NCBI GenBank assembly: GCA_030646995.1
Contig: JAUSKF010000004.1
Location: 84,404-148,403 of the forward strand
Direction: 5' to 3'
Length of the DNA stretch: 64,000 nucleotides
Origin: a bacterium
GTDB taxonomy: Bacteria > Patescibacteriota > Minisyncoccia > UBA6257 > WO2-44-18
Notes under the pieces: generated by a model
What the model was told of the DNA's origin: nothing
What the model saw: the letters and a program-made list of their open reading frames with translations, nothing else
Database searches by the model: none
Program-made: the position numbers and the translations under genes
Shown: in pieces, positions 27,987 through 64,000 of the stretch
Layout: each line of letters opens with the position of its first letter
Position numbering within the stretch: the stretch's first letter is position 1

Positions 27987-28328
27987 TTATTTTTCTATAG
28001 TTAAAAGATTCAAACGTTTTTGTTTCAAAAAATTCTGCGGCAACATACGCTTCACGGCCAACATCAAAACTTTCTCCGGAGATTTTGCAAAAGCCTCCTG
28101 GTAAACCTGCTCTTTCAAGTGACCCATATAGCCAGTGTGGCGATAGTAAATCTTTTGAGTCATTTTCCGACCGGTGACTACAATCTTCGAAGCGTTCTTA
28201 ACAACCACCTTATCTTTTCCGGGGTTGCGTGGCTGATAATCAGGATGCATTTTGCCCTGCAAAATCTGGGCAATCTGTGATGCCAAGCGTCCTAATTTCT
28301 GATCTTTTGCGTCAATTACGTATTGCAT
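27987..28328 (-). CDS. rplM: 50S ribosomal protein L13
   Basis: YYRHTGYMGHLK motif; canonical length. Confidence 0.95.
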   Translation of the reverse strand: MQYVIDAKDQKLGRLASQIAQILQGKMHPDYQPRNPGKDKVVVKNASKIVVTGRKMTQKIYYRHTGYMGHLKEQVYQEAFAKSPEKVLMLAVKRMLPQNFLKQKRLNLLTIEK

Positions 28329-28354
28329 TGTAGGATATTCTTATTGTTTAAACG

Positions 28355-28368
28355 TTTAAATATTTAAA
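28355..28368. promoter_or_regulatory. palindromic TTTAAATATTTAAA intergenic motif (1 of 5) upstream of rplM
   Basis: Exact 14 nt self-complementary motif, ~27 nt upstream of the start codon, in a 55 nt spacer. Confidence 0.4.
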
Positions 28369-28383
28369 GATATGATATATGAG

Positions 28384-28731
28384 TTACTTCACAAACTCAA
28401 TCACCGCCATCGGGGCGGCATCTCTCATGCGGGCCTTGGCCAACTTAGTGATGCGCAAGTAACCGCCGGCGCGATTCTGATAACGAGGCGCGACGTCAAA
28501 ATAAAGCTTCTTGGCAGATTTCTTAGGCAAAGCGGCAAGCAAGCGTCGAAGTGATGCTAATTGCTGCTTTTTGGCGATGGTAACCATTTTTTCCACCATC
28601 GGGCGAATTGCTTTGGCGCGCGCAACCGTAGTCGAAATCTTTTCTTTCATAATCAAATTATTAGCCAATCCTTGCAGGAAAGACTTTCGACGACCCATCG
28701 TACGATTAAATTTTCGCGCGTGCTTTGCCAT
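28384..28731 (-). CDS. rplQ: 50S ribosomal protein L17
   Basis: MAKHARKFNRTMGRRKS... canonical L17. Confidence 0.95.
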   Translation of the reverse strand: MAKHARKFNRTMGRRKSFLQGLANNLIMKEKISTTVARAKAIRPMVEKMVTIAKKQQLASLRRLLAALPKKSAKKLYFDVAPRYQNRAGGYLRITKLAKARMRDAAPMAVIEFVK

Positions 28732-28757
28732 TGTAGTATATTTCTATTATTTAAATG

Positions 28758-28771
28758 TTTAAATATTTAAA
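28758..28771. promoter_or_regulatory. palindromic TTTAAATATTTAAA intergenic motif (2 of 5) upstream of rplQ
   Basis: Exact 14 nt motif in the 45 nt rpoA-rplQ spacer. Confidence 0.4.
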
Positions 28772-28776
28772 CATCT

Positions 28777-29559
28777 TTACTCTTCTTTCTTCTTTTTCTT
28801 AGAGGCCTTTTTCGCTTTCTTTTCCTCTCCTTCTTCTGCAGCAACCGCAGACGCCTCTACTTCTTTGACTTCCACACCGGAAATCTTAACAAAGTGATCC
28901 TGCAAAATATTACTGGACTTTCTCAAAGCGGAAGATGGGGTGATACTGCCGTCGGTTGCGATAATCAAGCGGAGACGGTTGTAGTCAGCGCGCTCCCCTA
29001 CCCGCATATTTTCTACCGAAAAATTTACCTGTACTACCGGAGAGAATAAAGCGTCGATAGCGATAACACCAATCGGCAACTTATCGCTCTTACGGGATTC
29101 AACCGGCAAATAACCCAAACCCTTCTCCACGGTGATTTCCATATCTAATTCAGCATCCTTGCTGGTCAAGGTAGCAATGTGAACGTCGGAGCTAATCAGG
29201 TCAACTTGAGAGTTGGTCTTGATGTCGGACGCAGTCACAACTTTTTCTCCCTTAATCTTTAAAATCAAAACCTGAGGCTCGTCGGTGTGAATTCTAAAGC
29301 GAACTTTTTTCAAATTTAAAGCTACTTCCACCATGTCCTCCTTCACTCCTTCAACGGTAGAAAATTCATGGCTGGCTCCTTTGATTTTTACTTGAGTAAT
29401 CGCGGCGCCCGGAAGAGAAGAAAGCAAAACACGACGCAAAGCATTGCCAAGGGTTAAACCATAGCCACTGTACAATCCCTCAATTTCAAAAACCCCCTCT
29501 TTATCGGTTTCCGAGACCTTTTTGATTCCAACCGTCTCACTTAAATATTGATATTCCAT
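28777..29559 (-). CDS. rpoA: DNA-directed RNA polymerase alpha subunit (N-terminal domain only; no alpha-CTD)
   Basis: Alpha-NTD motifs (GYGLTLGNALRRVLLSSL, DALFSPV); 260 aa ending in an acidic/lysine tail in place of the ~80 aa HhH C-terminal domain. Confidence 0.9.
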   Translation of the reverse strand: MEYQYLSETVGIKKVSETDKEGVFEIEGLYSGYGLTLGNALRRVLLSSLPGAAITQVKIKGASHEFSTVEGVKEDMVEVALNLKKVRFRIHTDEPQVLILKIKGEKVVTASDIKTNSQVDLISSDVHIATLTSKDAELDMEITVEKGLGYLPVESRKSDKLPIGVIAIDALFSPVVQVNFSVENMRVGERADYNRLRLIIATDGSITPSSALRKSSNILQDHFVKISGVEVKEVEASAVAAEEGEEKKAKKASKKKKKEE

Positions 29560-29586
29560 AAGTTTTTTATTCTTTATATTTTACCT

Positions 29587-30201
29587 CTATTTACTATAAA
29601 AGTCAACCACAAGGTTCACATCAAACGGGATGTCGAAATCCTTAGGAGCGGAAAGCATCTTTCCCTCTTGTTTGTCAGCATCGACAGCCAACCAAACCGG
29701 AGCTTCGTATTTCTTTAGTTTTTCTCCCAAATCTTTGAAAAGCGGGTGTTCTTTAGACTGCGGACGAATGGAAACAATGTCTCCGGCTCGAAGCTGAATT
29801 GAAGGAATCGTGGCTTTGCGTCCATTCAACATAATATGGCCATGACTAACTAACTGGCGGGCAACGGAACGGGAAGCAGCAAATCCAACGCGATAGACCA
29901 CGTTATCTAAACGGCTTTCCAACAAGCTGATAATCAACGGACCGGTGACGCCGGGGTTACTGGTAGCTCTTTTTACGATCAAACGCATCTGATTCTCACG
30001 AATACCATAGGTATAGCGGATTTTTTGTTTCTCTTTCAGTTGAGTTCCAAATTCAGAAAGCTGTTTGCTAAAAGATTTACCGTGAGCTCCCGGTTTATGC
30101 GGCCTGCGTGAAGTAACGCATTTTGGAGAATTACAACGCTCCGCTTTCAAAAAAAGCTTTGTGCCTAGCGAACGTTCTCTTTTTTCTCGTGTATCAAACA
30201 T
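29587..30201 (-). CDS. rpsD: 30S ribosomal protein S4
   Basis: S4 domain (VSHGHIMLNGRKATIPSIQLRAGDIV). Confidence 0.95.
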   Translation of the reverse strand: MFDTREKRERSLGTKLFLKAERCNSPKCVTSRRPHKPGAHGKSFSKQLSEFGTQLKEKQKIRYTYGIRENQMRLIVKRATSNPGVTGPLIISLLESRLDNVVYRVGFAASRSVARQLVSHGHIMLNGRKATIPSIQLRAGDIVSIRPQSKEHPLFKDLGEKLKKYEAPVWLAVDADKQEGKMLSAPKDFDIPFDVNLVVDFYSK

Positions 30202-30227
30202 GGATGTATATTTTTATAATTTAAAAA

Positions 30228-30241
30228 TTTAAATATTTAAA
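30228..30241. promoter_or_regulatory. palindromic TTTAAATATTTAAA intergenic motif (3 of 5) upstream of rpsD
   Basis: Exact 14 nt motif in the rpsK-rpsD spacer. Confidence 0.4.
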
Positions 30242-30243
30242 CA

Positions 30244-30696
30244 TTAAATGCGGCGGACTTTGGGTGGTCTTGGACCGTTATGCGGAATCGGGGTTACGTC
30301 TTTAATAGAAAGGATATTGAAGCCATGGTTCGCCAAAGTGCGGACCGCGGAATCCCGGCCTCCGCCTACTCCGCTGACTACCACGTGCACATTGACCGGA
30401 CCGGACTTTTTCAACTTCTCAGCAATCACGGCGATTATCTTCGAAGCGGCAAAAGGAGTGGCCTTTTTCGGACCATTGAAACCCAAAGATCCGGCAGTGC
30501 TCCAAGCGAGTATATTACCTTTATCATCCGATACCGAAACTAGGGTGTTGTTGTAGGAAGCTTTGACGAAAACTTTGCCGGTATCAAATTTTTTGGAAAC
30601 CGACTTCTCGCTCGCCTTTGCAACAGCGGCTTCAGTCTTCTGGCCCTCTTTGAGGACTTCTTCGGTGGTTTGTTTTGTTGGTACTTTTTTACCCAT
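30244..30696 (-). CDS. rpsK: 30S ribosomal protein S11
   Basis: GKVFVKASYNNTLVSVSDDKGNILAWSTAGSLGF canonical. Confidence 0.95.
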   Translation of the reverse strand: MGKKVPTKQTTEEVLKEGQKTEAAVAKASEKSVSKKFDTGKVFVKASYNNTLVSVSDDKGNILAWSTAGSLGFNGPKKATPFAASKIIAVIAEKLKKSGPVNVHVVVSGVGGGRDSAVRTLANHGFNILSIKDVTPIPHNGPRPPKVRRI

Positions 30697-30717
30697 GTTG
30701 GTTGTGTATTTTTAGTA

Positions 30718-30731
30718 TTTAAATATTTAAA
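30718..30731. promoter_or_regulatory. palindromic TTTAAATATTTAAA intergenic motif (4 of 5) upstream of rpsK
   Basis: Exact 14 nt motif followed by a partial second copy (cgtttaaatatt). Confidence 0.4.
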
Positions 30732-30741
30732 CGTTTAAATA

Positions 30742-31125
30742 TTATTTCAACTCGTTTTTACGTTTTCCACTGCCAGCGGTCTTACGAACATTGCCACGCA
30801 CAGTGCGGGAGTTAGTCTTCGTCCTTTGGCCACGGACCGGGAGCTTGCGGGAGTGACGCATACCCCGATATGACTGCAAATCTTTCAATAAATTAATGTT
30901 CTGCTTGATGATTTGACGCAACTCACCCTCAACTTTAAAATTTTTCTCTATATGCGCCTGAATCCGGTTTACTTCCTCAGGGGTAAGAGTCTTGGCACGC
31001 TTGCTCGGATCAATTTTTACCTTCTCTAAAGTCTGGATTGCCAGAGTCCGGCCGATGCCGAAAAGATAAGTCAGCGCTATATCAATACGCTTGTTGTCTG
31101 GAATATTTGATCCGGAGATTCTCAT
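30742..31125 (-). CDS. rpsM: 30S ribosomal protein S13
   Basis: MRISGSNIPDNKRIDIALTYLFGIGRT canonical. Confidence 0.95.
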   Translation of the reverse strand: MRISGSNIPDNKRIDIALTYLFGIGRTLAIQTLEKVKIDPSKRAKTLTPEEVNRIQAHIEKNFKVEGELRQIIKQNINLLKDLQSYRGMRHSRKLPVRGQRTKTNSRTVRGNVRKTAGSGKRKNELK

Positions 31126-31143
31126 TGAAGTATATTTTATTAT

Positions 31144-31157
31144 TTAAATATTTAAAG
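31144..31157. promoter_or_regulatory. palindromic TTTAAATATTTAAA intergenic motif (5 of 5) upstream of rpsM
   Basis: Exact 14 nt motif in the rpmJ-rpsM spacer. Confidence 0.4.
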
Positions 31158-31177
31158 ATTTAAACATGGCGCTTCAC

Positions 31178-37339: not shown

Positions 37340-37540
37340 TATTTGTCAAGGGCTCATGGCTTCCTACCCCAAGCTCCTCATAAGACCTTCGGCGGCCAAA
37401 CCGCGACTTATTTAAGCTATTTTTTCGGCCCTAAAATTGGGGTGCGCCAAAATAGCTAAACGCACGGGGCTACGCCTCGGAATCTTATTCGGAGCATTGG
37501 GGTAAAGCCTGATTCGCTTTGTTAAAACTGGAACCAAGAA
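37340..37540. repeat. GC-rich intergenic repeat, copy A (~200 bp)
   Basis: Aligns along its length with 46440-46690 and partially with 57790-57875. Shared blocks include gaccttcggcggcc, ggccctaaa, cgcacggggctacgcctcggaatc, ttcgcttt and aagggctc. Confidence 0.55.
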
Positions 37541-46439: not shown

Positions 46440-46690
46440 CTCTCCAAGACAGCGGTGATATCTTACTAATTTTTTGCCAAAAAGTAAAGGGCTCGCTCGG
46501 TCTTTGCATAACTTCTCACTCGACCTTCGGCGGCCATGCCGCGACTCACTTAACGAGATTTTTCCGGCCCTAAAGGGACACTTCGTTCCCGAAAAAATCT
46601 CTATTCGCACGGGGCTACGCCTCGGAATCTCGTTCGAAATTATGCAAAGGCCTCATTCGCTTTATAAAAAATCTCCGCAAAAATGCGGAG
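46440..46690. repeat. GC-rich intergenic repeat, copy B (~250 bp) carrying the promoter of the NYN gene
   Basis: Homologous to copy A. On the minus strand TTTACT-17-TAAGAT promoter at the left end, aligned with TTGACA-17-TAGACT in copy A. Confidence 0.55.
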
Positions 46691-57180: not shown

Positions 57181-57789
57181 TAGGTGGTTATTATTTTTTA
57201 GGGTGACGTTTATATTAATGGCGACCCTGTCTAACCATTTTGGTTATTAAATTTTATTAAAATTGCGTCTTTCTTCCGCATGACTCTTCTACGGGGCTTG
57301 CCCCGCACCTTATTGCGTCATAGGCAGGCAAACTTCACGTCATAGAAAAGGTGCGGGGTCAAATTCAGAAAAACGCCAAAACCCAAACCACGCTTTTTAC
57401 CGATTTGAGCGTAGCTTATGGATTTCTTTAATTAGTTAATAGTGTATACCCGTTGACAAAAATTGTCAAGGGTGCGTTGGGGTGTGCCCGGTGCTACAAC
57501 AAATATGACCTAAGCACAAACCTCTATTTTCCACACAAACTTGCCGAAAGCTACTCTAATCTAGCCTGTTGGTTGTAGCACCGGGTGTGGATAACTCCCC
57601 TTGACCGCACTTGGCACTTTCGGGCGATCACTTCTCGGAAACGGCATAATTTGCTTCCAGCGAGCAAATTTACCTCTCCCTCGGCGATTTGTCCCTAATG
57701 AGCCAATCCAAATCGCCTGCGGCATGTTCCTCCAAGTAATCCGCCCTACGGCCAAGAGCAGTCTGCGTTGGTGCTGGTTGGGGAAATAA

Positions 57790-57875
57790 AAAATCCTATT
57801 CGCGCAGGGCTACGCCTCGGAATCGAGTCCGGAGTTTGGAACAGGGGCTCGCTAAGTTAGAAATCCGCCCACGCC
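57790..57875. repeat. GC-rich intergenic repeat, partial copy C
   Basis: aaaaaatcctattcgcgcagggctacgcctcggaatcgag...gggctcgct aligns with the 3' half of copies A and B; immediately 3' of the restriction-modification gene stop. Confidence 0.45.
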
Positions 57876-57907
57876 ACTTCGTTCACGAGATTCAGCCAAG
57901 CCTCAAT

Positions 57908-60283
57908 TTAAAATCCTGAAGGATAAGGCAAAGACCTTATATAGTCTTCCATAAATTGCCAATCAGGATTATCGCTCTTACCAATGGGAAGTTTAATTTT
58001 TTCGAAAGGCAATCTCATAAGCCTTACTTGTCTGCCATAGGCATACTTATACTTCAATTTACTTAGTATAGTTACCAAAAATAAAGAGCTGAATTTACTA
58101 AGCTCAAAGTCAATCGGAATAAGCGTGTGCACATTGTCGTCGCTGAAATATTTATAGTCATGATAAAAAACATTAAAAAACATATCGACGGTTATTTTAT
58201 TTTGAAATATCTTCTTCTTGCCTTGGAACTCCTCCAAAGAAATGTATTCGGAAACACCGTTGTTATTTTCTCCAGCTGTTATTAGTGGGATCTCGCCATC
58301 TATACGATCGGGCTTTGTCAATCTCTCCCCTTTCTCAAAGCGAAATAGATCACCCAAGCCAAACACTCTCCAACTGCGAGTATCTATTAATTGCTCCTTC
58401 TTAGTAGAATCTTTATTTTTTAACAAGAACTCAGCCATTTCGCTTTTCCCGTTTTTAAATAAAAACGCAGCTACATTCACTGTATTTTGAATAAATTCTA
58501 ATCCACTAATTCTTGAGAAATCAGTCTCGAGATACGCCTCAGCGCACCACTCATCATCTTTGGTGATCTTTTTAAGAACACAAAAACCAGGAATTTCTTT
58601 TTTCCCGTAAAAAGCCGCCAACCATGCTTCTCTTATATCTCGCCATTTGTCGGTAGCGACCCTGCCATCCCTTTTATCTTTTCTAAAACCATCATTTTTC
58701 CAATATCCGAACCAGCTCTCGTGATGCTCGTCGCTATCATGTGGGGTATGAGCCGTAAAAACCATAATACAAGTAACGGTTCCGATGGGGTAAAATAGGT
58801 CATCCGGCATACTCATCACCGCTTCTAATCTATGCTCGCTGAGAAGTTTTTCACGAAGTGGATGCTTGGTATCGATCGCTAGAGACATTGGCACAATTAC
58901 TATCCCCGTCGCGTTCTTACTCAACCCATCAAGCATGCGAATGACGAAATCCCACTCATGCAAATTGTCACCTTTTTGTGAATATGGTGGGTTCATAAAA
59001 CCCGCGTTCGCTTTATTTTTAATTTTATTGAAAAGAACGTCATCGAAACATGAACCTTGATAAAGATTAGTCTTCCCATCACCTCGCAAGATCATGTTCG
59101 AAACAGCTAGAGCAAACATTTGGGGTTCTTGCTCGATGCCAATAAGGGAGTTGGATAGTATTCTTCTTTTCTCTTCCGCCGAAACTTTTCCAGTCATTTT
59201 TTTCATCGCCGATATCAGAAAACCGCCAGTTCCGGCGCATATATCAAGAACGACTGAATTCTTGTCTAGTTTTGCCAACTCTGAGAATAAGTCGGTGATA
59301 TGTTTTGGGGTTAGAACAATACCAAGACCCTTACCATCACCTCCGGTATAACGAATAAATTCACCATAAAAATTGCCTATGATGTCAAAATCATAGTGAT
59401 CTTTGGTGAAGGGCTGAACGTGCATTTGTAAATCTCTGATTATGTGTAGTAAAGGGGATTCGTTTTTCTTGGCGTCAATCTTTTGTAACTCAGGATGGTG
59501 TGCTATAAAACTAAACGCGTTTACAACTGCTTTCTTCTTAGCTTCATGCGTGTCTCCAAGCTCCGCTTTATCTATAATCTTTTTTAAAGAATTAAATGTC
59601 TCGTTGGCCAATTCTTCTCCTTCGTATTTCTTGTATGCAACCTCAAAACCCTTATCCATGAGAGCTAATAAAACACCGCTAACTAGCAATGGCTTTTGGG
59701 CTTCAGTAATCTTCGCATAATCGCGCATGTAATCATGCAACTCCCGGGAAAAACGCATTAGATCAGAATGCCGGGACTTTGCTAACGCAGGATCAAATTT
59801 CGCACGCTCAATATACCTATTCCAAGGCAGTATTTTCTCGATTTTTCTATTATTTTCATCTAATAAATCTGTATAGGTAGAAGAGTTTTTAGGATATAAA
59901 TATGTACTTACTTTGTAATCACTTTCATCTTCGCCGCTAATACCAATGGCAATAACATTAAATTCCCGGGCCAGGTGACTACCATACAAAAGAGCGCCAT
60001 CAACTGCATAATCCTTGTACTGATCCCTGCTTTTTGATTCGTGATATTTTAAATCCGCTTTGCATTCGATGATTAGTAAAAAATCATTGTCGTCTTTTTT
60101 CCTAACAATAAACTCCGGCTTTCCCGATCCTAAACCAGACTTACTGGCATTTTTTAGTAATTTTTGGATTGTGGGATTGTCGCTTTTTTGTTCTTCAACA
60201 ACAAATTCTGCATTATCAAAAATACCCGCCTTTGTCAGAAGTTTACGAGATAGGTTTTCGGTTTTTTTCTCGTTCTTAGTCAT
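57908..60283 (-). CDS. single-polypeptide Type IIG/IIL restriction-modification enzyme (MmeI-like: N-terminal PD-(D/E)xK nuclease, gamma-class N6-adenine methyltransferase, C-terminal HsdS-like target-recognition domain)
   Basis: DFLLIIECK nuclease motif; methyltransferase motif I VLDICAGTGGFL before motif IV NPPY; C-terminal region with HsdS-type TRD pattern. AT-rich (~33% GC). Start trimmed to the ATG after a GGGGG RBS. Confidence 0.75.
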   Translation of the reverse strand: MTKNEKKTENLSRKLLTKAGIFDNAEFVVEEQKSDNPTIQKLLKNASKSGLGSGKPEFIVRKKDDNDFLLIIECKADLKYHESKSRDQYKDYAVDGALLYGSHLAREFNVIAIGISGEDESDYKVSTYLYPKNSSTYTDLLDENNRKIEKILPWNRYIERAKFDPALAKSRHSDLMRFSRELHDYMRDYAKITEAQKPLLVSGVLLALMDKGFEVAYKKYEGEELANETFNSLKKIIDKAELGDTHEAKKKAVVNAFSFIAHHPELQKIDAKKNESPLLHIIRDLQMHVQPFTKDHYDFDIIGNFYGEFIRYTGGDGKGLGIVLTPKHITDLFSELAKLDKNSVVLDICAGTGGFLISAMKKMTGKVSAEEKRRILSNSLIGIEQEPQMFALAVSNMILRGDGKTNLYQGSCFDDVLFNKIKNKANAGFMNPPYSQKGDNLHEWDFVIRMLDGLSKNATGIVIVPMSLAIDTKHPLREKLLSEHRLEAVMSMPDDLFYPIGTVTCIMVFTAHTPHDSDEHHESWFGYWKNDGFRKDKRDGRVATDKWRDIREAWLAAFYGKKEIPGFCVLKKITKDDEWCAEAYLETDFSRISGLEFIQNTVNVAAFLFKNGKSEMAEFLLKNKDSTKKEQLIDTRSWRVFGLGDLFRFEKGERLTKPDRIDGEIPLITAGENNNGVSEYISLEEFQGKKKIFQNKITVDMFFNVFYHDYKYFSDDNVHTLIPIDFELSKFSSLFLVTILSKLKYKYAYGRQVRLMRLPFEKIKLPIGKSDNPDWQFMEDYIRSLPYPSGF

Positions 60284-60478
60284 GGAAAACCCCCAAAGCA
60301 GTAAAAGCAAAATTATCTCCTATTGTTTGATTATATCATCTTCGCTTATATCGAAAACGGAAAAGAGTAAATAATACATATAGCAAAGCTATGCCGAGAA
60401 AGCTCCTCAGGGCGTGGATCCAATCCTCGCCCTAGCCGCCTTCTTCCATTTTACTCTCTAGGTTAGTAAATTCCTTTC

Positions 60479-61633
60479 CTACTTTATCGCCTTAATGAAA
60501 CTGATTAGTGCCTCGGTTGCTTCCGCGAGATCTATTGAAACTGGAACATCAATACCATGTGCAATATCGTGCCTTAGTCTAGTAATGGGCGTGATTGGAT
60601 CCTTTTTATTATCGGCTTTGCAGATTCGGCCTACTTTCTTTGATTTAAAATAAGCATTGAACATATACTCGTCAAAATCAGTGTAAGTATCACCTGTGTA
60701 CCTACCACTTTTTTCTTCACGGCGCTTTAAATATTCATATAATTCTAAATAGTAACTCTCGCTCGCTACTCCAAAAATGAGGTAATTAATCTCACCATCT
60801 GACTTATAAGGAAGCACCCCTACGCCATCCATTCTTTTCACGGCGGTCGCATCCTTCTTGGTATCATCGCGATATATTTGGTAAATTGCCTGCCCCTTAC
60901 CCAGCTCTATAAAATATGGATCATGGGTCGTAATAAGAACTTTCGCGCCCGGCCTTTGAGAAAGCTTAAAGAGGGCACCATATAAGCTCTTTTTCCATTT
61001 TGGATGTAGGTATGCTTCTGGCTCTTCGAAAACTATTAAAATTTTCTCTTCTTCTCTAATCTCTCTTTCGGCGTAGTACCGAATAAGCGCTGCAACTATG
61101 AGACGCTGCGCGCCCATTCCAATTTTTTCAAAATCCACCTCACCAACTTTTGTTTTATATAAATCTTTTACGAAGGCTTTTATCAGCTTAATAATCAAAT
61201 CTTCCTTAAAACTATCCTCGGATATCTTCAGATCAAACTCCTTCTTCTCCAAACCAAAATCATTCAAAATCCTATTTACTCCGCCAACAAATTCTTTTTT
61301 CGCTTTAGACGTTTCAAATTTATTCGCTAAATCCTTAAGCATACTTTTATCGAAAATCGGGCCGAGGATAAGCTTTAGGAGCTTAAAAAAATCAGTCGTT
61401 GTTGCGGAGGTCTTTGTTTCTTCGTTCTGTGGCTGAGTATTCTCTGCGGGAATAAAAATAGGCTCATATTCTCCCATTGCTTCATGATCCATAATTGCCT
61501 TAACTAAGCTTGTTTTTCCGCTATTATTCTCGCCAGCCAAAATTGTGTAATTTCCCAACTCTAATATTATTTCCTCGGTGATACTCGTCCCATCTTGCTT
61601 AGGTATAGTAAGTTTCATTTTATTGAGCTTCAT
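60479..61633 (-). CDS. AAA15/ABC-type ATPase with ~130 aa C-terminal domain carrying an Rx4-6H (HEPN-like) motif
   Basis: Walker A GENNSGKTS, Q-loop-like GMGAQR, Walker B ILIVFEEPEAYLHP, H-loop VLITTHDP; C-terminal TRLRHDIAHG. Start ambiguous (61648/61633/61618). Confidence 0.65.
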   Translation of the reverse strand: MKLNKMKLTIPKQDGTSITEEIILELGNYTILAGENNSGKTSLVKAIMDHEAMGEYEPIFIPAENTQPQNEETKTSATTTDFFKLLKLILGPIFDKSMLKDLANKFETSKAKKEFVGGVNRILNDFGLEKKEFDLKISEDSFKEDLIIKLIKAFVKDLYKTKVGEVDFEKIGMGAQRLIVAALIRYYAEREIREEEKILIVFEEPEAYLHPKWKKSLYGALFKLSQRPGAKVLITTHDPYFIELGKGQAIYQIYRDDTKKDATAVKRMDGVGVLPYKSDGEINYLIFGVASESYYLELYEYLKRREEKSGRYTGDTYTDFDEYMFNAYFKSKKVGRICKADNKKDPITPITRLRHDIAHGIDVPVSIDLAEATEALISFIKAIK

Positions 61634-62883
61634 GTGCCCCGCTGCCATCTTCTAATTCCAAAGTTTTTATCTGTGGTAAAGAAACTAAACCGCTTAAATC
61701 CCCATACATGCCTACTGTGTTCGTAATTACTTTTTGAATTTGCTTTTCTCTCTCAGACCAAATCTTTTCATATGCCAGTCGTTCTTTTCTTAAACCTTCA
61801 CCCATATTAGTGAAAGCCTCAACGATTGCCTCTACCCTCTGCCTAAACTCCACGCCAGTTAAATAACTGTAAAGTACTTCCATCTTTTCATTCTTGCCAA
61901 CCGACATTGCCCTCTCCCTCGTGACTGCTTCTAAATTCATTCGTATGGCCGTAGCTAAAGCTATAGAAAGCTTCGTGTCGCAAATCCAAACTCCGTCTCG
62001 AAAAATAAATCCCTTCACCCCCTCCGGCAAAACCGCAGAAACAATCACTGCTACATCAGCCTTAATCGCTCTTTGATCATCTTTTAACTTCTGAATCCAT
62101 CCCTCGCTCCAAGCCTTGGTTTTTTTAGATTCCCAAACAATTTTTCCGCATAATCGACCGCCACGATCCAAAACTTTCTGAATAACATCGGCGCCGGTAA
62201 CTCCTTTGGGGACTGGCAAAATTTCATCAATCGGAAATTCAGATCTCAGTATTTCTTCAAGTTCCAATTCCAGAACCTCGCCCTGAGTTTGCTGCGATCC
62301 TTGTTCTAGCTTGCGCATCAAATCAGCGTTCGCTTTCGTAACGTCCGAGATTTTTTTATTCAGTTCGGCAATTTTATACCAACTTTCCTCTACGGCCTTT
62401 TTATTAGCTTCTTCTGATATCTTTTTTCGTTCCTCATCTAATTGCCTCTGCTTCTCTAGTTCAAAGTTCTTTTTGTCCTCTTCAAGTTTATTCTTCTCTT
62501 TGCGTAGCCGTAACTCATTTCCATTCGCTTCCTCTAACTTTTTATCCTTTTCTTTGAGCTGTTCATCTAAAAATTTTAATTCAGACAACTTTTGCTTTTC
62601 TGCCTCAGCTTGAGCCTGCTTCCGCAAAGCAGGTTTCTCAGCGGCAATCTTTTCGTTTACTTTCCTGTTAACCTCCGCTTGCGAGTTTTGTTGAGCCTCT
62701 AATAATTTGACCTGCCCGGCTTCTAATTCTTTTCTCTGTGTAGTAATTTCGGCTTCTTTTAGCCTGCTTTCTTCGCCAAATTCTTTTTTTAATTTTTCTT
62801 TTATTTGATGAGTCAAAACCTCATCCATCGAAAATAACGCACGGCATTTCGGACACTCAATTTTTTGCCCTGGGGTTTCCATT
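61620..62883 (-). CDS. DUF2130-like protein: N-terminal zinc ribbon, long coiled coil, C-terminal PD-(D/E)xK-like domain
   Basis: ECPKCRALF zinc ribbon; ~250 aa K/E-rich coiled coil; GADVIQKV...IVWESKKTK (D...ExK). Start trimmed to the ATG at 62883; the longer extension runs through GC-rich DNA. Confidence 0.55.
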
Positions 62884-63007
62884 TTGATTTTAATTGTTAC
62901 TGATTCTACCAGAAAATCTGGTATACAGGAACTCGCTGCGCCCCAGGAAGGAATCAAGTCTTCGGGAAATAAAAAGCCCCGCTTATTAGGCGGGGCCACT
63001 TTCTTAC

Positions 63008-63409
63008 TTAACCACCTAGGACGGGATAGTGCTGCTGATGGACGTGGTACTTGAATCCATGGAACTCGCTGATGTAAATCTTGTTCACCATATCGCCGCA
63101 TCGTTTTTCGGGTTGGCCAACTTCGATGCACAGATCACTGAACGGAATCTCGGGGAATGCTTCCCGCGCAAGCGCGATTAACTGACTCATCTTCGGAAGC
63201 ATTGCCAGCGATCGCGGACCCGCAACTGCGACGAAGGTGATTTCCACAACTCGCGCCGAATCCTTGAACTCGGTCATCACTGCCGTCGTCTTTGTGTCTT
63301 CCGCTTTCCCATTGGCCGACATGAGATGCGACAAATCCTTCGTCGCATTCACTTCCCGAGCTTTTTTCCACGCCGCCTTCAACTCCGGACTTGCGCCTTT
63401 CATGGCCAA
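63008..63409 (-). CDS. hypothetical protein (133 aa), GC-rich
   Basis: AAGGAGG RBS; minus-strand promoter TTGCTT-17-TATTAT at 63432-63460. Confidence 0.45.
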   Translation of the reverse strand: MAMKGASPELKAAWKKAREVNATKDLSHLMSANGKAEDTKTTAVMTEFKDSARVVEITFVAVAGPRSLAMLPKMSQLIALAREAFPEIPFSDLCIEVGQPEKRCGDMVNKIYISEFHGFKYHVHQQHYPVLGG

Positions 63410-63506
63410 CCTCCTTAATTGGGCTTAGCAGATAATAGCACGAATTAACCTGAAAAGCAACTATCTTTGGCCAGAGTCCACTATTGCCCTGCTGTGGACA
63501 AATTCG

Positions 63507-63534
63507 TTGACTATTGCGGAAATTCTGCTATATT
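63507..63534 (+). promoter_or_regulatory. sigma70-like promoter TTGACT-16-TATATT (plus strand)
   Basis: Consensus-like -35 and -10, divergent from the minus-strand promoter of the 63409 gene. Confidence 0.4.
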
Positions 63535-63540
63535 TTAGGT

Positions 63541-63592
63541 ATTAGGGCTTCGGCCTCCGAGGACCCCGCAGAAATGCGGGGTCCGATTTTTT
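63541..63592 (+). ncRNA. candidate ~50 nt small RNA or leader (UUCG-loop hairpin + GAAA-loop terminator hairpin)
   Basis: Promoter-to-terminator distance ~50 nt; GGCttcgGCC and GGACCCCGCAgaaaTGCGGGGTCC followed by tttttt; no ORF. Confidence 0.3.
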
Positions 63593-63749
63593 ATAATGAC
63601 TCTTTCCATATCGCTTTGAGAACTTTGAATTCTTCCTCGCCCAGAACCACCGCTGACCTTCTGTGGAAAAAGCACTTGACTATGCAGGCCTGCGGGTATA
63701 TAGTCTTAATTGTAAAGGGTGTCCCAGGTGTGGGCGCCCCCTTTGCTTT

Positions 63750-64000
63750 TTATGGGACTTTTATAAGATTTTTGCTTGATACCAACCTTATTAAACCCTC
63801 ATTCTTCTTTGTAAAATCGTCCTTAATTGCCCCGCCTATAATGTCTGACATTTGCATTGCATTTACATATCGAGAATCAACGTGCGTTATATGATTGATT
63901 CTTTCTCTATCTTTATCTTTGATGTACTTTTTCACTTTTTTCATTAGATAGTTGTCAAAGGAGTCGAATTTCCCATCTAGCAATCTCCGATCTGTTCGAT
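63750..64000 (-). CDS. hypothetical protein, C-terminal part (reading frame stays open to the window edge)
   Basis: No in-frame stop between 63983 and 64000; AT-rich. Confidence 0.3.
   Translation of the reverse strand, partial: RTDRRLLDGKFDSFDNYLMKKVKKYIKDKDRERINHITHVDSRYVNAMQMSDIIGGAIKDDFTKKNEGLIRLVSSKNLIKVP

Follow-up and report, generated by a model that had tools for sequence, protein, structure and literature searches.

A candidate horizontally acquired island of separable defence modules: a Type IIG restriction-modification enzyme and a DUF2130/ATPase-HEPN cassette

On balance, we favour the view that three genes upstream of rpoB form a horizontally acquired defence island of separable modules, in which a Type IIG restriction-modification (R-M) enzyme adjoins a cassette encoding a DUF2130 protein and an ATPase with a HEPN domain. 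The genes lie in a 64,000-nt stretch of DNA, referred to here as the window; their content, the folds and invariant motifs of their products, the indel that contains them and their recurrent adjacency to one another were established computationally.

Results

Position, extent and composition of the island

The island consists of three co-oriented minus-strand ORFs, found exactly where they had been predicted at 57908-60283 (791 aa), 60479-61633 (384 aa) and 61620-62882 (420 aa), and the NCBI annotation gives identical products (MDO8466947-49). The host is an uncultured CPR bacterium (a Parcubacteria genome). The overlapping or abutting gene ends were also as described: the ATPase is annotated to start with an ATG at 61633, and the DUF2130 stop codon (61622-61620) falls 14 nt inside the ATPase ORF. 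A terminator-like hairpin with a T-run (62975-62997, minus strand) separates the upstream small ORF from the DUF2130 gene and suggests that the DUF2130 and ATPase genes open a transcription unit of their own. The ATPase and R-M genes are about 195 nt apart, so that the R-M enzyme may not be co-regulated with the pair.

Two synteny anchors, also present in the closest relative (GCA_964361985.1), bound the interval 57182-63492, which measures 6310 nt in the window versus 790 nt in the relative. The anchors are two matches at 80% identity, one of L223:5923-12643 with window positions 57182-50451 and one of L223:4978-5133 with window positions 63647-63492. Since this close relative, with rpoBC at 80% nucleotide identity, lacks the block, the block is an indel of ~5.5 kb; the extra DNA carries four ORFs. 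The predicted drop in GC is real but had been overstated, the island having a GC of 0.392 (GC3 0.375-0.385) against 0.488 for rpoB and 0.473 for rpoC (GC3 0.54 and 0.51, respectively), that is, 39% versus 47-49% and not 33% versus 45%. The suggestion that the island occupies the usual place of rplJ-rplL before rpoB finds no support: in the relative, too, rpoB lacks a preceding rplJ-rplL, and the genes upstream of it are FtsW, YceG and PemK.

Both proposed flanking elements were found, although one of them does not delimit the island. Copy C of a 58-nt dispersed repeat lies at 57788-57845, with other copies at 37448 and 46593. All copies sit just 3' of a minus-strand gene, and because two of those genes are unrelated ones the repeat is not island-specific and marks no island boundary; it has no significant fold and no Rfam match. 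The fourth ORF within the indel is the GC-rich one (63008-63403, minus strand; 131 aa; GC 0.53), an orphan that has no match in Pfam or PHROG and forms a singleton cluster in a collection of 15 billion proteins.

The restriction-modification enzyme

Motifs, Pfam and PADLOC agree that the 791-aa protein combines nuclease, gamma-class methyltransferase and target recognition in one chain, as had been proposed. Its N-terminal PD-(D/E)xK nuclease carries PEFIV (60104-60118) and ECK (60059-60067), its gamma-class N6-adenine methyltransferase carries DICAGTGGF (59219-59245) and NPPY (58982-58993), and a single HsdS-type target-recognition domain (TRD) occupies residues ~612-791, all on the minus strand. 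The best matches are N6_Mtase (1.3e-27) and Methylase_S (1.4e-19) in Pfam, and REase_MTase_IIG (6e-117, residues 5-612) and Specificity_II (6e-20) in PADLOC. The Type IIG assignment therefore stands, but the MmeI-like label attached to it was rejected: the Pfam search found no MmeI domains, the methyltransferase and TRD are of HsdM/HsdS type, and sequence matches in the PDB were to HsdM only. The enzyme presumably resembles the BcgI type (Type IIB/IIG), in which a single chain carries the PD-(D/E)xK nuclease together with an HsdM-like gamma methyltransferase and specificity is supplied by an HsdS-like part. Pairs of RM (614 aa) and S (312 aa) genes occur among its close homologues, whereas the window enzyme has its single TRD fused to the RM chain. 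The R-M enzyme is a mobile module in its own right: one such split copy, at least 90% identical, occurs elsewhere without DUF2130 or the ATPase.

The ATPase-HEPN protein

Pfam, PADLOC and PDB comparisons identify the 384-aa protein as an OLD-like ABC ATPase (AAA_15 5e-22, AAA_21 8e-19) with a C-terminal HEPN domain. The claim that it holds every ABC/AAA15 motif was borne out, since the residues of Walker A (GENNSGKT, 61511-61534), the signature (GMGAQR, 61103-61120), Walker B (FEEPE, 61016-61030) and the H-loop (TTHD, 60920-60931), all on the minus strand, are invariant in 38 homologues. Walker B has E instead of D, which we count against our preferred explanation. The best partial matches in PADLOC are Old (1e-26) and AriA (8e-25), the best PDB match of the ATPase profile is the OLD-family nuclease 6p74 (1.4e-18), and the solved structures and defence models closest to it are those of OLD, PtuA, AriA and GajA. 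Residues ~275-384 (60482-60811, minus strand) model as a HEPN fold and contain TRLRHDIAHG, with the Rx4H motif RHDIAH at 60557-60574. The reading of this sequence as a HEPN Rx4-6H signature is upheld by the invariance of its R and H in 38 and 65 homologues of 20-63% identity, and the residue after the R is polar, mostly H, N, D or Q. The HEPN domain is probably an RNase.

The DUF2130 protein

The assignment of the 420-aa protein to DUF2130 was confirmed (PF09903, 1e-63), as was its nuclease-like core: D232...E251-x-K253 (62124-62189, minus strand) is invariant in the alignment, and the C-terminal domain models as a PD-(D/E)xK nuclease fold. The rest of the proposed architecture needs correction. 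In place of a four-cysteine zinc ribbon, only one CxxC is conserved (C10, C13; CPKC, 62844-62855, minus strand). The Lys/Glu-rich helical stretch, judged by eye from the sequence and alignment, is about 170-190 aa long and not ~250 aa; a length of about 255 aa applies only to 500-aa relatives. An N-terminal coiled coil followed by a C-terminal PD-(D/E)xK nuclease domain is also the plan of RmuC (PF02646) and, we presume, of Shield ShdA. In contrast to these, DUF2130 forms a Pfam family of its own and bears a CxxC at its N-terminus, and the protein has no RmuC Pfam match at E<=0.01. Indeed, neither it nor the ATPase matched the RmuC, RecF, RecN or SbcC families; a place in housekeeping families such as RmuC, RecF or RecN is what the original prediction had said would speak against it. 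The family is found at 55-80% identity across Nitrospirota, Omnitrophica, Patescibacteria, Elusimicrobiota, Gammaproteobacteria and Brocadiaceae, a sequence pattern that indicates horizontal transfer. Such strong conservation is atypical of defence effectors, and it too is a point against our explanation.

The pairing across genomes

An ABC ATPase lies directly downstream of DUF2130, co-oriented and usually with a gap of <30 nt, in 26 of the 61 dereplicated loci that have downstream sequence. Nine of these ATPases are of the HEPN type, nine are AAA_15 proteins with or without OLD_TOPRIM, six are AAA_13 and two are SMC-like; DUF2130 is paired equally often with other ABC ATPases (OLD-TOPRIM, AAA_13) as with the HEPN type. 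The two genes are often wedged between hsdM and hsdS, and HsdS is the co-oriented next gene in five of the 61 loci. Upstream of DUF2130 we found HsdM-type genes (13/80 loci), RhuM-family genes (6/80) and a third cluster (seven loci, mostly divergent) whose scanned representative is an N6/N4 methyltransferase. One locus (L219) has the order RhuM/Fic, HsdM, DUF2130, OLD, HsdS with overlapping ORFs, and an Aliarcobacter plasmid carries DUF2130, an OLD ATPase, a UvrD helicase, a methyltransferase and RhuM. DUF2130 also precedes SIR2, an LCAT-like lipase, DUF6119, Cas12a or HsdS, and it occurs without an ATPase partner on rhizobial and Sulfurimonas plasmids.

From the side of the ATPase, DUF2130 is adjacent in four of 22 family loci and missing from the other 18, while about 57% of DUF2130 loci have no downstream ABC ATPase. 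The pairing is thus facultative, and each gene is commoner without the other. Conservation of the pair as neighbours without the R-M enzyme had been proposed as a check; tight adjacency does recur, but only in 4/22 and 9/61 loci. Members of one DUF2130 group at >=95% identity have three different downstream genes, and across 12 pairs there was no co-divergence (Spearman rho 0.02), identities ranging over 64-97% for the DUF2130 nuclease domain and 27-77% for the ATPases. The ATPase often stands alone or adjoins DUF2779 or methyltransferases, and a DUF2779/Cas4-like nuclease is directly 3' of it in L004, L013, L014 and L085. Almost all genes around family members belong to R-M or defence, including an EcoRI methyltransferase with GmrSD-HNH, a C5 methyltransferase, an N6/N4 methyltransferase and a Type III Res, and, in a second set, integrase, NERD, GmrSD and TIR.

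Discussion

The original prediction knew of no named system with this pairing. DUF2130 indeed has no model in PADLOC, NCBIfam or PHROG, but the general kind, in which R-M or defence loci contain an ABC ATPase whose nuclease is fused to it or encoded next to it, is already described, as in PrrC/RloC and HEC-01 to HEC-04. PrrC and RloC are R-M-linked proteins that join an ABC ATPase to a HEPN anticodon nuclease (PMC3710099). Like the window ATPase they have about 380-400 aa, with an ABC NTPase at the N-terminus and, at the C-terminus, a HEPN domain that has an essential R...H motif, and they lie beside or within R-M operons as predicted second-line abortive RNases (PMC3710099). However, the window ATPase core is AAA_15/AAA_21, with no AAA_13 match in Pfam, its HEPN part has no detectable sequence relationship to theirs, and the partner is a Type IIG and not a Type Ic system. 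The closest ATPase core is that of the OLD family (P2 Old, class 1/2 OLD, GajA), whose OLD-TOPRIM members fill the same slot downstream of DUF2130 at other loci; the window protein has HEPN instead of TOPRIM and is much shorter (384 versus 530-650 aa). Septu PtuAB, PARIS AriAB and HEC-01/02/03 are likewise two-gene cassettes, in which a protein with a nuclease fold accompanies an ABC ATPase of the AAA_15/21 type, and they often lie inside other defence systems. Defence has been demonstrated for embedded ABC ATPase systems with TOPRIM, NERD or PIN (HEC-01 to HEC-04), and HEC-02 pairs its ATPase with a PD-(D/E)xK (NERD) protein (bioRxiv 10.1101/2024.01.29.577857). Here, in contrast, the partner is DUF2130 and not HNH, DUF4435-TOPRIM, NERD or PIN, its gene comes before that of the ATPase, and the ATPase has its own HEPN effector.

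It is possible, though we lean against it, that the three (or four) genes, defensive or selfish, are unrelated and have simply piled up at a variable hotspot before rpoB. The ATPase-HEPN protein would then act on its own as an abortive RNase encoded by one gene, as OLD, PrrC and RloC do, and DUF2130 would be an R-M-associated gene that works independently, comparable to RhuM or Fic; defence-island clustering and cassette shuffling would have brought them together with no functional partnership. The site is indeed a variable hotspot, because the relative carries a PemK toxin there, and the R-M enzyme is demonstrably independent. DUF2130 and the ATPase are apart in more loci than together, their divergences are uncorrelated, and both the varied genes behind one DUF2130 allele and the SIR2, lipase, DUF6119, Cas12a and HsdS neighbours fit such shuffling. 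Yet the adjacency in 26/61 loci, usually with overlapping or closely spaced genes, is found in four or more ATPase subfamilies and in several phyla and is far more specific than general island clustering; in the window the two ORFs share 14 nt, and a terminator lies ahead of them.

A role for the pair in DNA repair, recombination or mobile-element maintenance seems unlikely to us, whether as an RmuC/Rad50-like coiled-coil nuclease with an SMC/RecF-like ATPase or as an addiction module stabilising the island or plasmids. The coiled coil, PD-(D/E)xK domain and very high conservation of DUF2130 do recall housekeeping DNA-processing proteins, and the alignment suggests that its single CxxC could link two molecules through a Rad50-like zinc hook. 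Relaxase, ParA and ArdC-like genes lie near DUF2130 on rhizobial conjugative plasmids, and HEPN domains also serve as toxins of toxin-antitoxin systems (PMC3710099). Against this stand the absence of RmuC, RecF, RecN and SbcC matches, a patchy distribution that leaves the closest relative without the block, near-identical DUF2130 proteins in separate phyla, overwhelmingly R-M or defence neighbours, and the defence ATPases that are nearest to the window ATPase. Least of all do we expect DUF2130 to be a regulator or anti-defence-type protein without effector function, such as a guard or antitoxin restraining the downstream ATPase nuclease or R-M enzyme, or a leading-region factor of conjugative elements. 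Its constant place upstream of variable toxic effectors, its extreme conservation beside changing partners and its proximity to an ArdC-like metallopeptidase on conjugative plasmids would suit such a role, but the invariant D...ExK and intact nuclease fold argue for enzymatic activity, and its frequent position between hsdM and hsdS is a site of known second-line effectors.

We therefore return to the defence island of separable modules, for which a role in defence, RNase and DNase activities, a trigger and any physical interaction are inferred. In our model, the stand-alone Type IIG enzyme would restrict unmethylated incoming DNA. The second module would be a translationally coupled DUF2130 to ATPase-HEPN cassette, whose ATPase can be seen as an OLD-type ABC ATPase with the TOPRIM effector swapped for a HEPN domain. 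Its ABC head may sense an infection cue, for example DNA structures that are aberrant or foreign, or an anti-restriction factor of the phage, upon which a nucleotide-dependent rearrangement would unmask or assemble the HEPN Rx4H site. By analogy, this would be the logic of PrrC/RloC, and also that of P2 OLD and PARIS, where an ABC-ATPase sensor releases a tRNase; P2 OLD has been reported as a DNA-sensing tRNase (bioRxiv 10.64898/2026.07.10.737580). From its repeated place before several types of ABC-ATPase nuclease, we infer that DUF2130 is a DNA-directed accessory to whichever ABC ATPase follows, acting as a DNA-end or structure binder or as a nuclease. The best reading is thus an abortive RNase resembling PrrC and OLD that has DUF2130 as its DNA-nuclease accessory and adjoins an independent R-M enzyme. 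Cleavage of tRNA or other RNA would arrest translation, and the resulting abortive infection would give the cell a second line of defence behind restriction.

Results

Read along the minus strand, a small GC-rich ORF (63403-63008; 131 aa, GC 0.53) and a terminator-like hairpin (62997-62975) precede the DUF2130 gene (62882-61620; 420 aa), the ATPase gene (61633-60479; 384 aa), a gap of ~195 nt (60284-60478) and the gene for the restriction-modification (R-M) enzyme (60283-57908; 791 aa). A 727-nt spacer carrying one copy of a dispersed repeat then leads to rpoB (57180-53974) and rpoC (53963-50415) on the same strand. The same products appear in the NCBI annotation of the MAG (MDO8466946-50). 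As had been read from the sequence, the DUF2130 stop at 61620 lies within the ATPase gene, the two overlapping by 14 nt. The GC content of the island is 0.392 against 0.488 for rpoB, 0.473 for rpoC and 0.462 for the whole window, and GC3 is 0.375-0.385 in the island, 0.54 in rpoB and 0.51 in rpoC; the lower GC of the island in the original prediction was therefore right in direction, but its figures of 33% and 45% were not. The RpoB protein falls in a cluster of at least 90% identity with those of Parcubacteria/Patescibacteria MAGs, and the host is a CPR bacterium.

The closest relative, GCA_964361985.1 (L223), is 80% identical to the window at the nucleotide level over rpoB-rpoC, and the two share downstream synteny (S6, SSB, S18, PAP2 and further genes) as well as an upstream anchor (L223:4978-5133, equivalent to 63647-63492 of the window). 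Since the distance between anchors is 790 nt in the relative and 6310 nt in the window, the window holds ~5.5 kb of extra DNA, comprising the small ORF and the DUF2130, ATPase and R-M genes, and this block is an indel relative to GCA_964361985.1. The genes upstream of rpoB in the relative are those for FtsW, YceG and a PemK toxin, the last of which occupies the position of the island (L223:4642-5034, compared with ~63590-64000 of the window), which marks the stretch before rpoB as a variable hotspot. The island had been thought to sit where rplJ-rplL would normally precede rpoB; given the gene order of the relative, and that no L10 or L12 gene was found in the window, we abandon this view and regard the insertion site as a variable hotspot, not as a displaced rplJL operon. 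In another CPR genome (L081:12148-13054), a member of the ATPase family lies ~5 kb upstream of rplJ-rplL, with an LCAT/DUF7379 protein nearby.

Several further features of the region were noted. The 131-aa ORF inside the indel is an orphan whose GC content exceeds that of both host and island; it has its own RBS, is followed by the terminator, has no Pfam or PHROG match and is a singleton in a collection of 15 billion proteins. The gap between the ATPase and R-M genes carries a -10-like GATATAAT; it also holds a TTG at 60310, preceded at 7 nt by AGGAG, and this alternative R-M start would add nine residues relative to the annotated ATG at 60283. A 58-nt dispersed repeat (core GATTCCGAGGCGTAGCCC on the minus strand) occurs at 37448-37505, 46593-46650 and 57788-57845 (copy C), each time directly 3' of a minus-strand gene, the copies at 37448 and 46593 following unrelated genes. 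At these two sites a second, 63-nt repeat (37374-37436 and 46512-46574) precedes it to form a composite element of ~130 nt. The 58-nt repeat is dispersed behind three unrelated genes, forms no significant fold and matches nothing in Rfam; copy C was therefore discarded as an att site or a boundary of the island. Elsewhere, an AT-rich 46-nt direct repeat (…TTTAAACGTTTAAATATTTAAAGAT) is present five times between short genes at 28326-31167, with 400-1470 nt from copy to copy, and may be a shared promoter/operator element.

The ATPase matches Pfam AAA_15 and AAA_21, and its best relatives among defence models and solved structures are OLD, AriA, PtuA and GajA, in each case over the ATPase core only. 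Across 38 homologues of 27-63% identity, the Walker A motif, the GxGxQR signature, FEEPE, LHP, TTHD and residues R354 and H359 are invariant. A HEPN signature had been proposed for the C-terminal tail, and R354 and H359 remain invariant when 65 sequences are compared, the position after R354 being mostly H, N, D or Q. The predicted fold of this region agrees, being an all-alpha, up-down helical bundle of the kind expected for HEPN, with the Rx4H motif placed where helix 3 ends. The Pfam model HEPN_RiboL-PSP (PF18735) scores the ATPase below its gathering threshold (17.7 against 28.4 bits, E 0.0034); a precomputed match to this model exists in three homologues. Judged by sequence and modelled structure, the protein is an OLD-type ABC ATPase in which a HEPN effector, a putative RNase, replaces TOPRIM. 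The tight family is small and mostly Patescibacterial: of 1.84 billion sequences searched, 78 representatives reach E<=1e-30. The same C-terminal region recurs in a much larger set of AAA_15 ATPases of 450-590 aa (P0312-P0386), where it has no Pfam annotation; Rx4H lies within the last 110 residues in 48 of the 64 hits of at least 430 aa, typically as I-R-N/H-x-I-H/D-H-P-E-N. One protein of this set (P0314) is fused to BspA-type LRRs.

The 420-aa protein belongs to PF09903 (COG4487) at 1e-63, with 215 bits against a cut-off of 26.7 over positions 4-253 of the 255-position profile. At E<=1e-10 this very large family gives over 6700 hits, and identities of 55-80% extend across Nitrospirota, Omnitrophica, Patescibacteria, Elusimicrobiota, Gammaproteobacteria and Brocadiaceae. 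The nuclease-like core that had been proposed alongside a CxxC ribbon was upheld, as D232, E251 and K253, like many other positions, are invariant, and the C-terminus is modelled as a restriction-endonuclease-like, PD-(D/E)xK-type fold carrying the conserved D...(D/E)xK. The ribbon was not, as the N-terminus has only one conserved CxxC (C10, C13). No family in PADLOC-DB v2.0 matched at E<=0.01, nor did any in NCBIfam or PHROGs. In the literature searchable, the family figures solely among members of the PD-(D/E)XK clan without a known function (PMC3424549), and nothing on defence appears under DUF2130, COG4487 or PF09903; neither 'DUF2130' nor 'PF09903' occurs in the supplements of two defence-discovery papers.

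The R-M enzyme matches the PADLOC model REase_MTase_IIG at 6e-117 (residues 5-612 on positions 8-613 of 614) and carries a PEFIV...ECK nuclease motif and the methyltransferase motifs DICAGTGGF and NPPY. It is a predicted Type IIG enzyme, with nuclease and methyltransferase in a single polypeptide, to which one target-recognition domain (TRD) is fused (Pfam Methylase_S, 1.4e-19, residues 637-783). It had been called MmeI-like. However, at E<=0.01 Pfam returns only N6_Mtase, Methylase_S and FtsJ and none of the MmeI models (N-terminal, helicase-spacer, Mtase, TRD, C-terminal), and its sequence relatives in the PDB are HsdM proteins only, so that label was dropped; the architecture may be BcgI-like. 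The R-M part shares at least 90% identity with a 614-aa RM protein whose gene overlaps a separate 312-aa S gene (L224:7001-9780, L225:1669-4448), in an unrelated, non-CPR-looking context with a MASE1 histidine kinase and GH10 and with neither DUF2130 nor the ATPase near. Such identity in such a context would imply a very recent inter-phylum transfer, and the fused TRD would imply that the window enzyme arose by RM-S fusion or TRD swap.

Conservation of the gene pair was surveyed from both sides. Among 22 independent ATPase loci (16 GTDB genomes, five look-ups and the window), DUF2130 lies directly upstream of the ATPase in four (the window, L010, L012 and L013) and a DUF2779/Cas4-like nuclease directly downstream in four (L004:9131-10624, L013:9178-10656, L014:9149-10654 and L085:2248-3741). 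Other neighbours include an EcoRI methyltransferase with GmrSD-HNH, C5 and N6/N4 methyltransferases, a Type III Res and an integrase/NERD/GmrSD/TIR set, and several copies are solitary. The DUF2779 protein, of ~495 aa, combines a Cas4-like PD-(D/E)xK domain with an RNase_H-like region and often overlaps the ATPase-HEPN gene before it by 4 nt; it also follows the ATPase at L103:2820-4298, and all three genes are present in L013 and L103.

On the DUF2130 side, 80 metagenome loci (L087-L166) formed 68 groups at 95% identity, 61 of which had at least 700 nt downstream. An ABC ATPase is the next co-oriented gene in 26 of the 61: nine of the HEPN family, eight AAA_15 with OLD_TOPRIM, one AAA_15 only, six AAA_13 and two SMC-like. 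HsdS follows in five, and the remainder include a methyltransferase, a giant SF1 helicase-nuclease and, with DUF2130 6-103 nt directly upstream, Cas12a/Cpf1 (L158:7286-11116), a SIR2_2 protein (L099:7267-8616), a 1204-aa LCAT-like lipase (L106:7366-10980) and a DUF6119 protein (L136:7245-8762). Gaps from DUF2130 to the next gene are typically -10 to +30 nt. Upstream of DUF2130 stand HsdM-type methyltransferases (13/80 loci), RhuM-family proteins (6/80) and a third cluster (seven loci, mostly divergent in orientation), the scanned representative of which is an N6/N4 methyltransferase. In L219 the ORFs overlap in the order RhuM/Fic, HsdM, DUF2130, OLD, HsdS, and an Aliarcobacter plasmid has DUF2130, OLD ATPase, UvrD helicase, methyltransferase and RhuM. 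No paired locus elsewhere carries the Type IIG enzyme of the window. Co-occurrence of the pair apart from this enzyme, which the original prediction had raised, thus recurs, but the pairing is not obligate. Divergent DUF2130 proteins of 34-38% identity also occur alone on rhizobial conjugative plasmids (L168, Mesorhizobium pMLa, and 31 Bradyrhizobium plasmids); on pMLa, the one plasmid inspected, the gene lies near a relaxase, ParA, DUF736 and an ArdC-like zincin, unlike the R-M-embedded context.

Discussion

The ATPase resembles several known systems, each in part. It shares its core with the OLD family (PADLOC Old, 1e-26, partial; profile against PDB 6p74, 1.4e-18), but the C-terminal TOPRIM of that family is missing, with no OLD-like_TOPRIM match; an OLD-like TOPRIM is present in alternative DUF2130 partners. 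AriA, PtuA and GajA match partially, over the core only, whereas their partners AriB (DUF4435), PtuB (HNH) and GajB (UvrD helicase) are all absent from 57181-64000. PARIS, Septu and Gabija were rejected on these grounds, as were MADS, Menshen (NsnB), PD-T4-4 and HEC-01, with partial core matches, absent partners and NCBIfam scores far below cut-offs (MAD2, 22 bits against 720; MAD3, 30 against 420). PrrC and RloC likewise combine a C-terminal HEPN nuclease domain with R-M linkage, but theirs is an AAA_13-type (SbcC/Rad50-like) NTPase and the window ATPase has no AAA_13 match; membership of the PrrC family is ruled out and the likeness is an analogy of architecture and context only. The housekeeping alternative that had been named, RecF-, RecN- or RmuC-like proteins, fell away, as no such family matched in Pfam or NCBIfam and RmuC (PF02646) did not match DUF2130 at E<=0.01. 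A phage origin was also rejected, since 2.9 million viral contigs hold just one full-length ATPase-family member and DUF2130 occurs in just seven Helicobacter prophage records, at 29.5% identity, with no PHROG.

The original prediction of a candidate undescribed defence module was essentially right in its observation, with several wrong details, and its interpretation is partly supported. We tentatively propose, as a possible rather than a probable reading, that DUF2130 is the conserved core of unrecognised, widely transferred R-M-embedded cassettes, in which a near-invariant coiled-coil PD-(D/E)xK protein would act together with interchangeable ABC-ATPase effectors (AAA_15-HEPN, OLD-TOPRIM, Gabija-like OLD+UvrD and RloC-like AAA_13). 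The window would then represent the HEPN version of a new defence system that comes in several flavours. On this proposal, the lone N-terminal CxxC might form a zinc hook similar to that of Rad50. DUF2130 proteins at least 95% identical to one another (L148, L151, L162, L163 and L164) precede three different genes, HsdS, AAA_15-OLD_TOPRIM and AAA_13, which suggests that cassettes have been exchanged in the position right after DUF2130. In the main rival reading, the DUF2130, ATPase and R-M genes are neighbours that act autonomously within a defence hotspot. DUF2130 without the ATPase on rhizobial and Sulfurimonas plasmids counts against obligate partnership, as do the three different genes that follow the near-identical DUF2130 group and the lack of correlation (rho 0.02) between DUF2130 and ATPase divergence in 12 pairs, and the split RM+S copy elsewhere argues that the R-M enzyme is an independent, recently transferred module. 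In the same 12 pairs, identity across phyla is 64-97% (median 89%) for the nuclease domain of DUF2130 against 27-77% (median 43%) for the ATPases; near-invariance beside rapidly diverging partners is unusual for a defence-island gene and suggests that DUF2130 recognises something conserved, for example a DNA structure or host machinery.

PrrC/RloC, found in R-M loci, place a HEPN anticodon nuclease under the control of an ABC NTPase (PMC3710099), defence activity has been demonstrated for embedded systems of an ABC ATPase and a nuclease (bioRxiv 10.1101/2024.01.29.577857), and P2 OLD is reported to be a DNA-structure-sensing tRNase (bioRxiv 10.64898/2026.07.10.737580). By analogy with these, the ABC head would sense an infection-linked cue and would then license the HEPN site to cut RNA; RNA cleavage would arrest translation as a back-up to restriction. 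DUF2130 may be a DNA-directed accessory nuclease or sensor common to several ABC-ATPase effectors. The window system would be a candidate for ABC-ATPase-based immunity associated with R-M loci, a kind already known; the association of DUF2130 with such systems has no description in the literature searchable. If true, our reading would add DUF2130, with thousands of homologues and a function unknown since 2012, as a new partner class for ABC-ATPase-based immune systems. It would also define an OLD-to-HEPN effector swap linking OLD, PARIS and PrrC-type tRNase immunity, and would provide a concrete candidate system for the CPR/Patescibacteria, whose immunity is poorly known.
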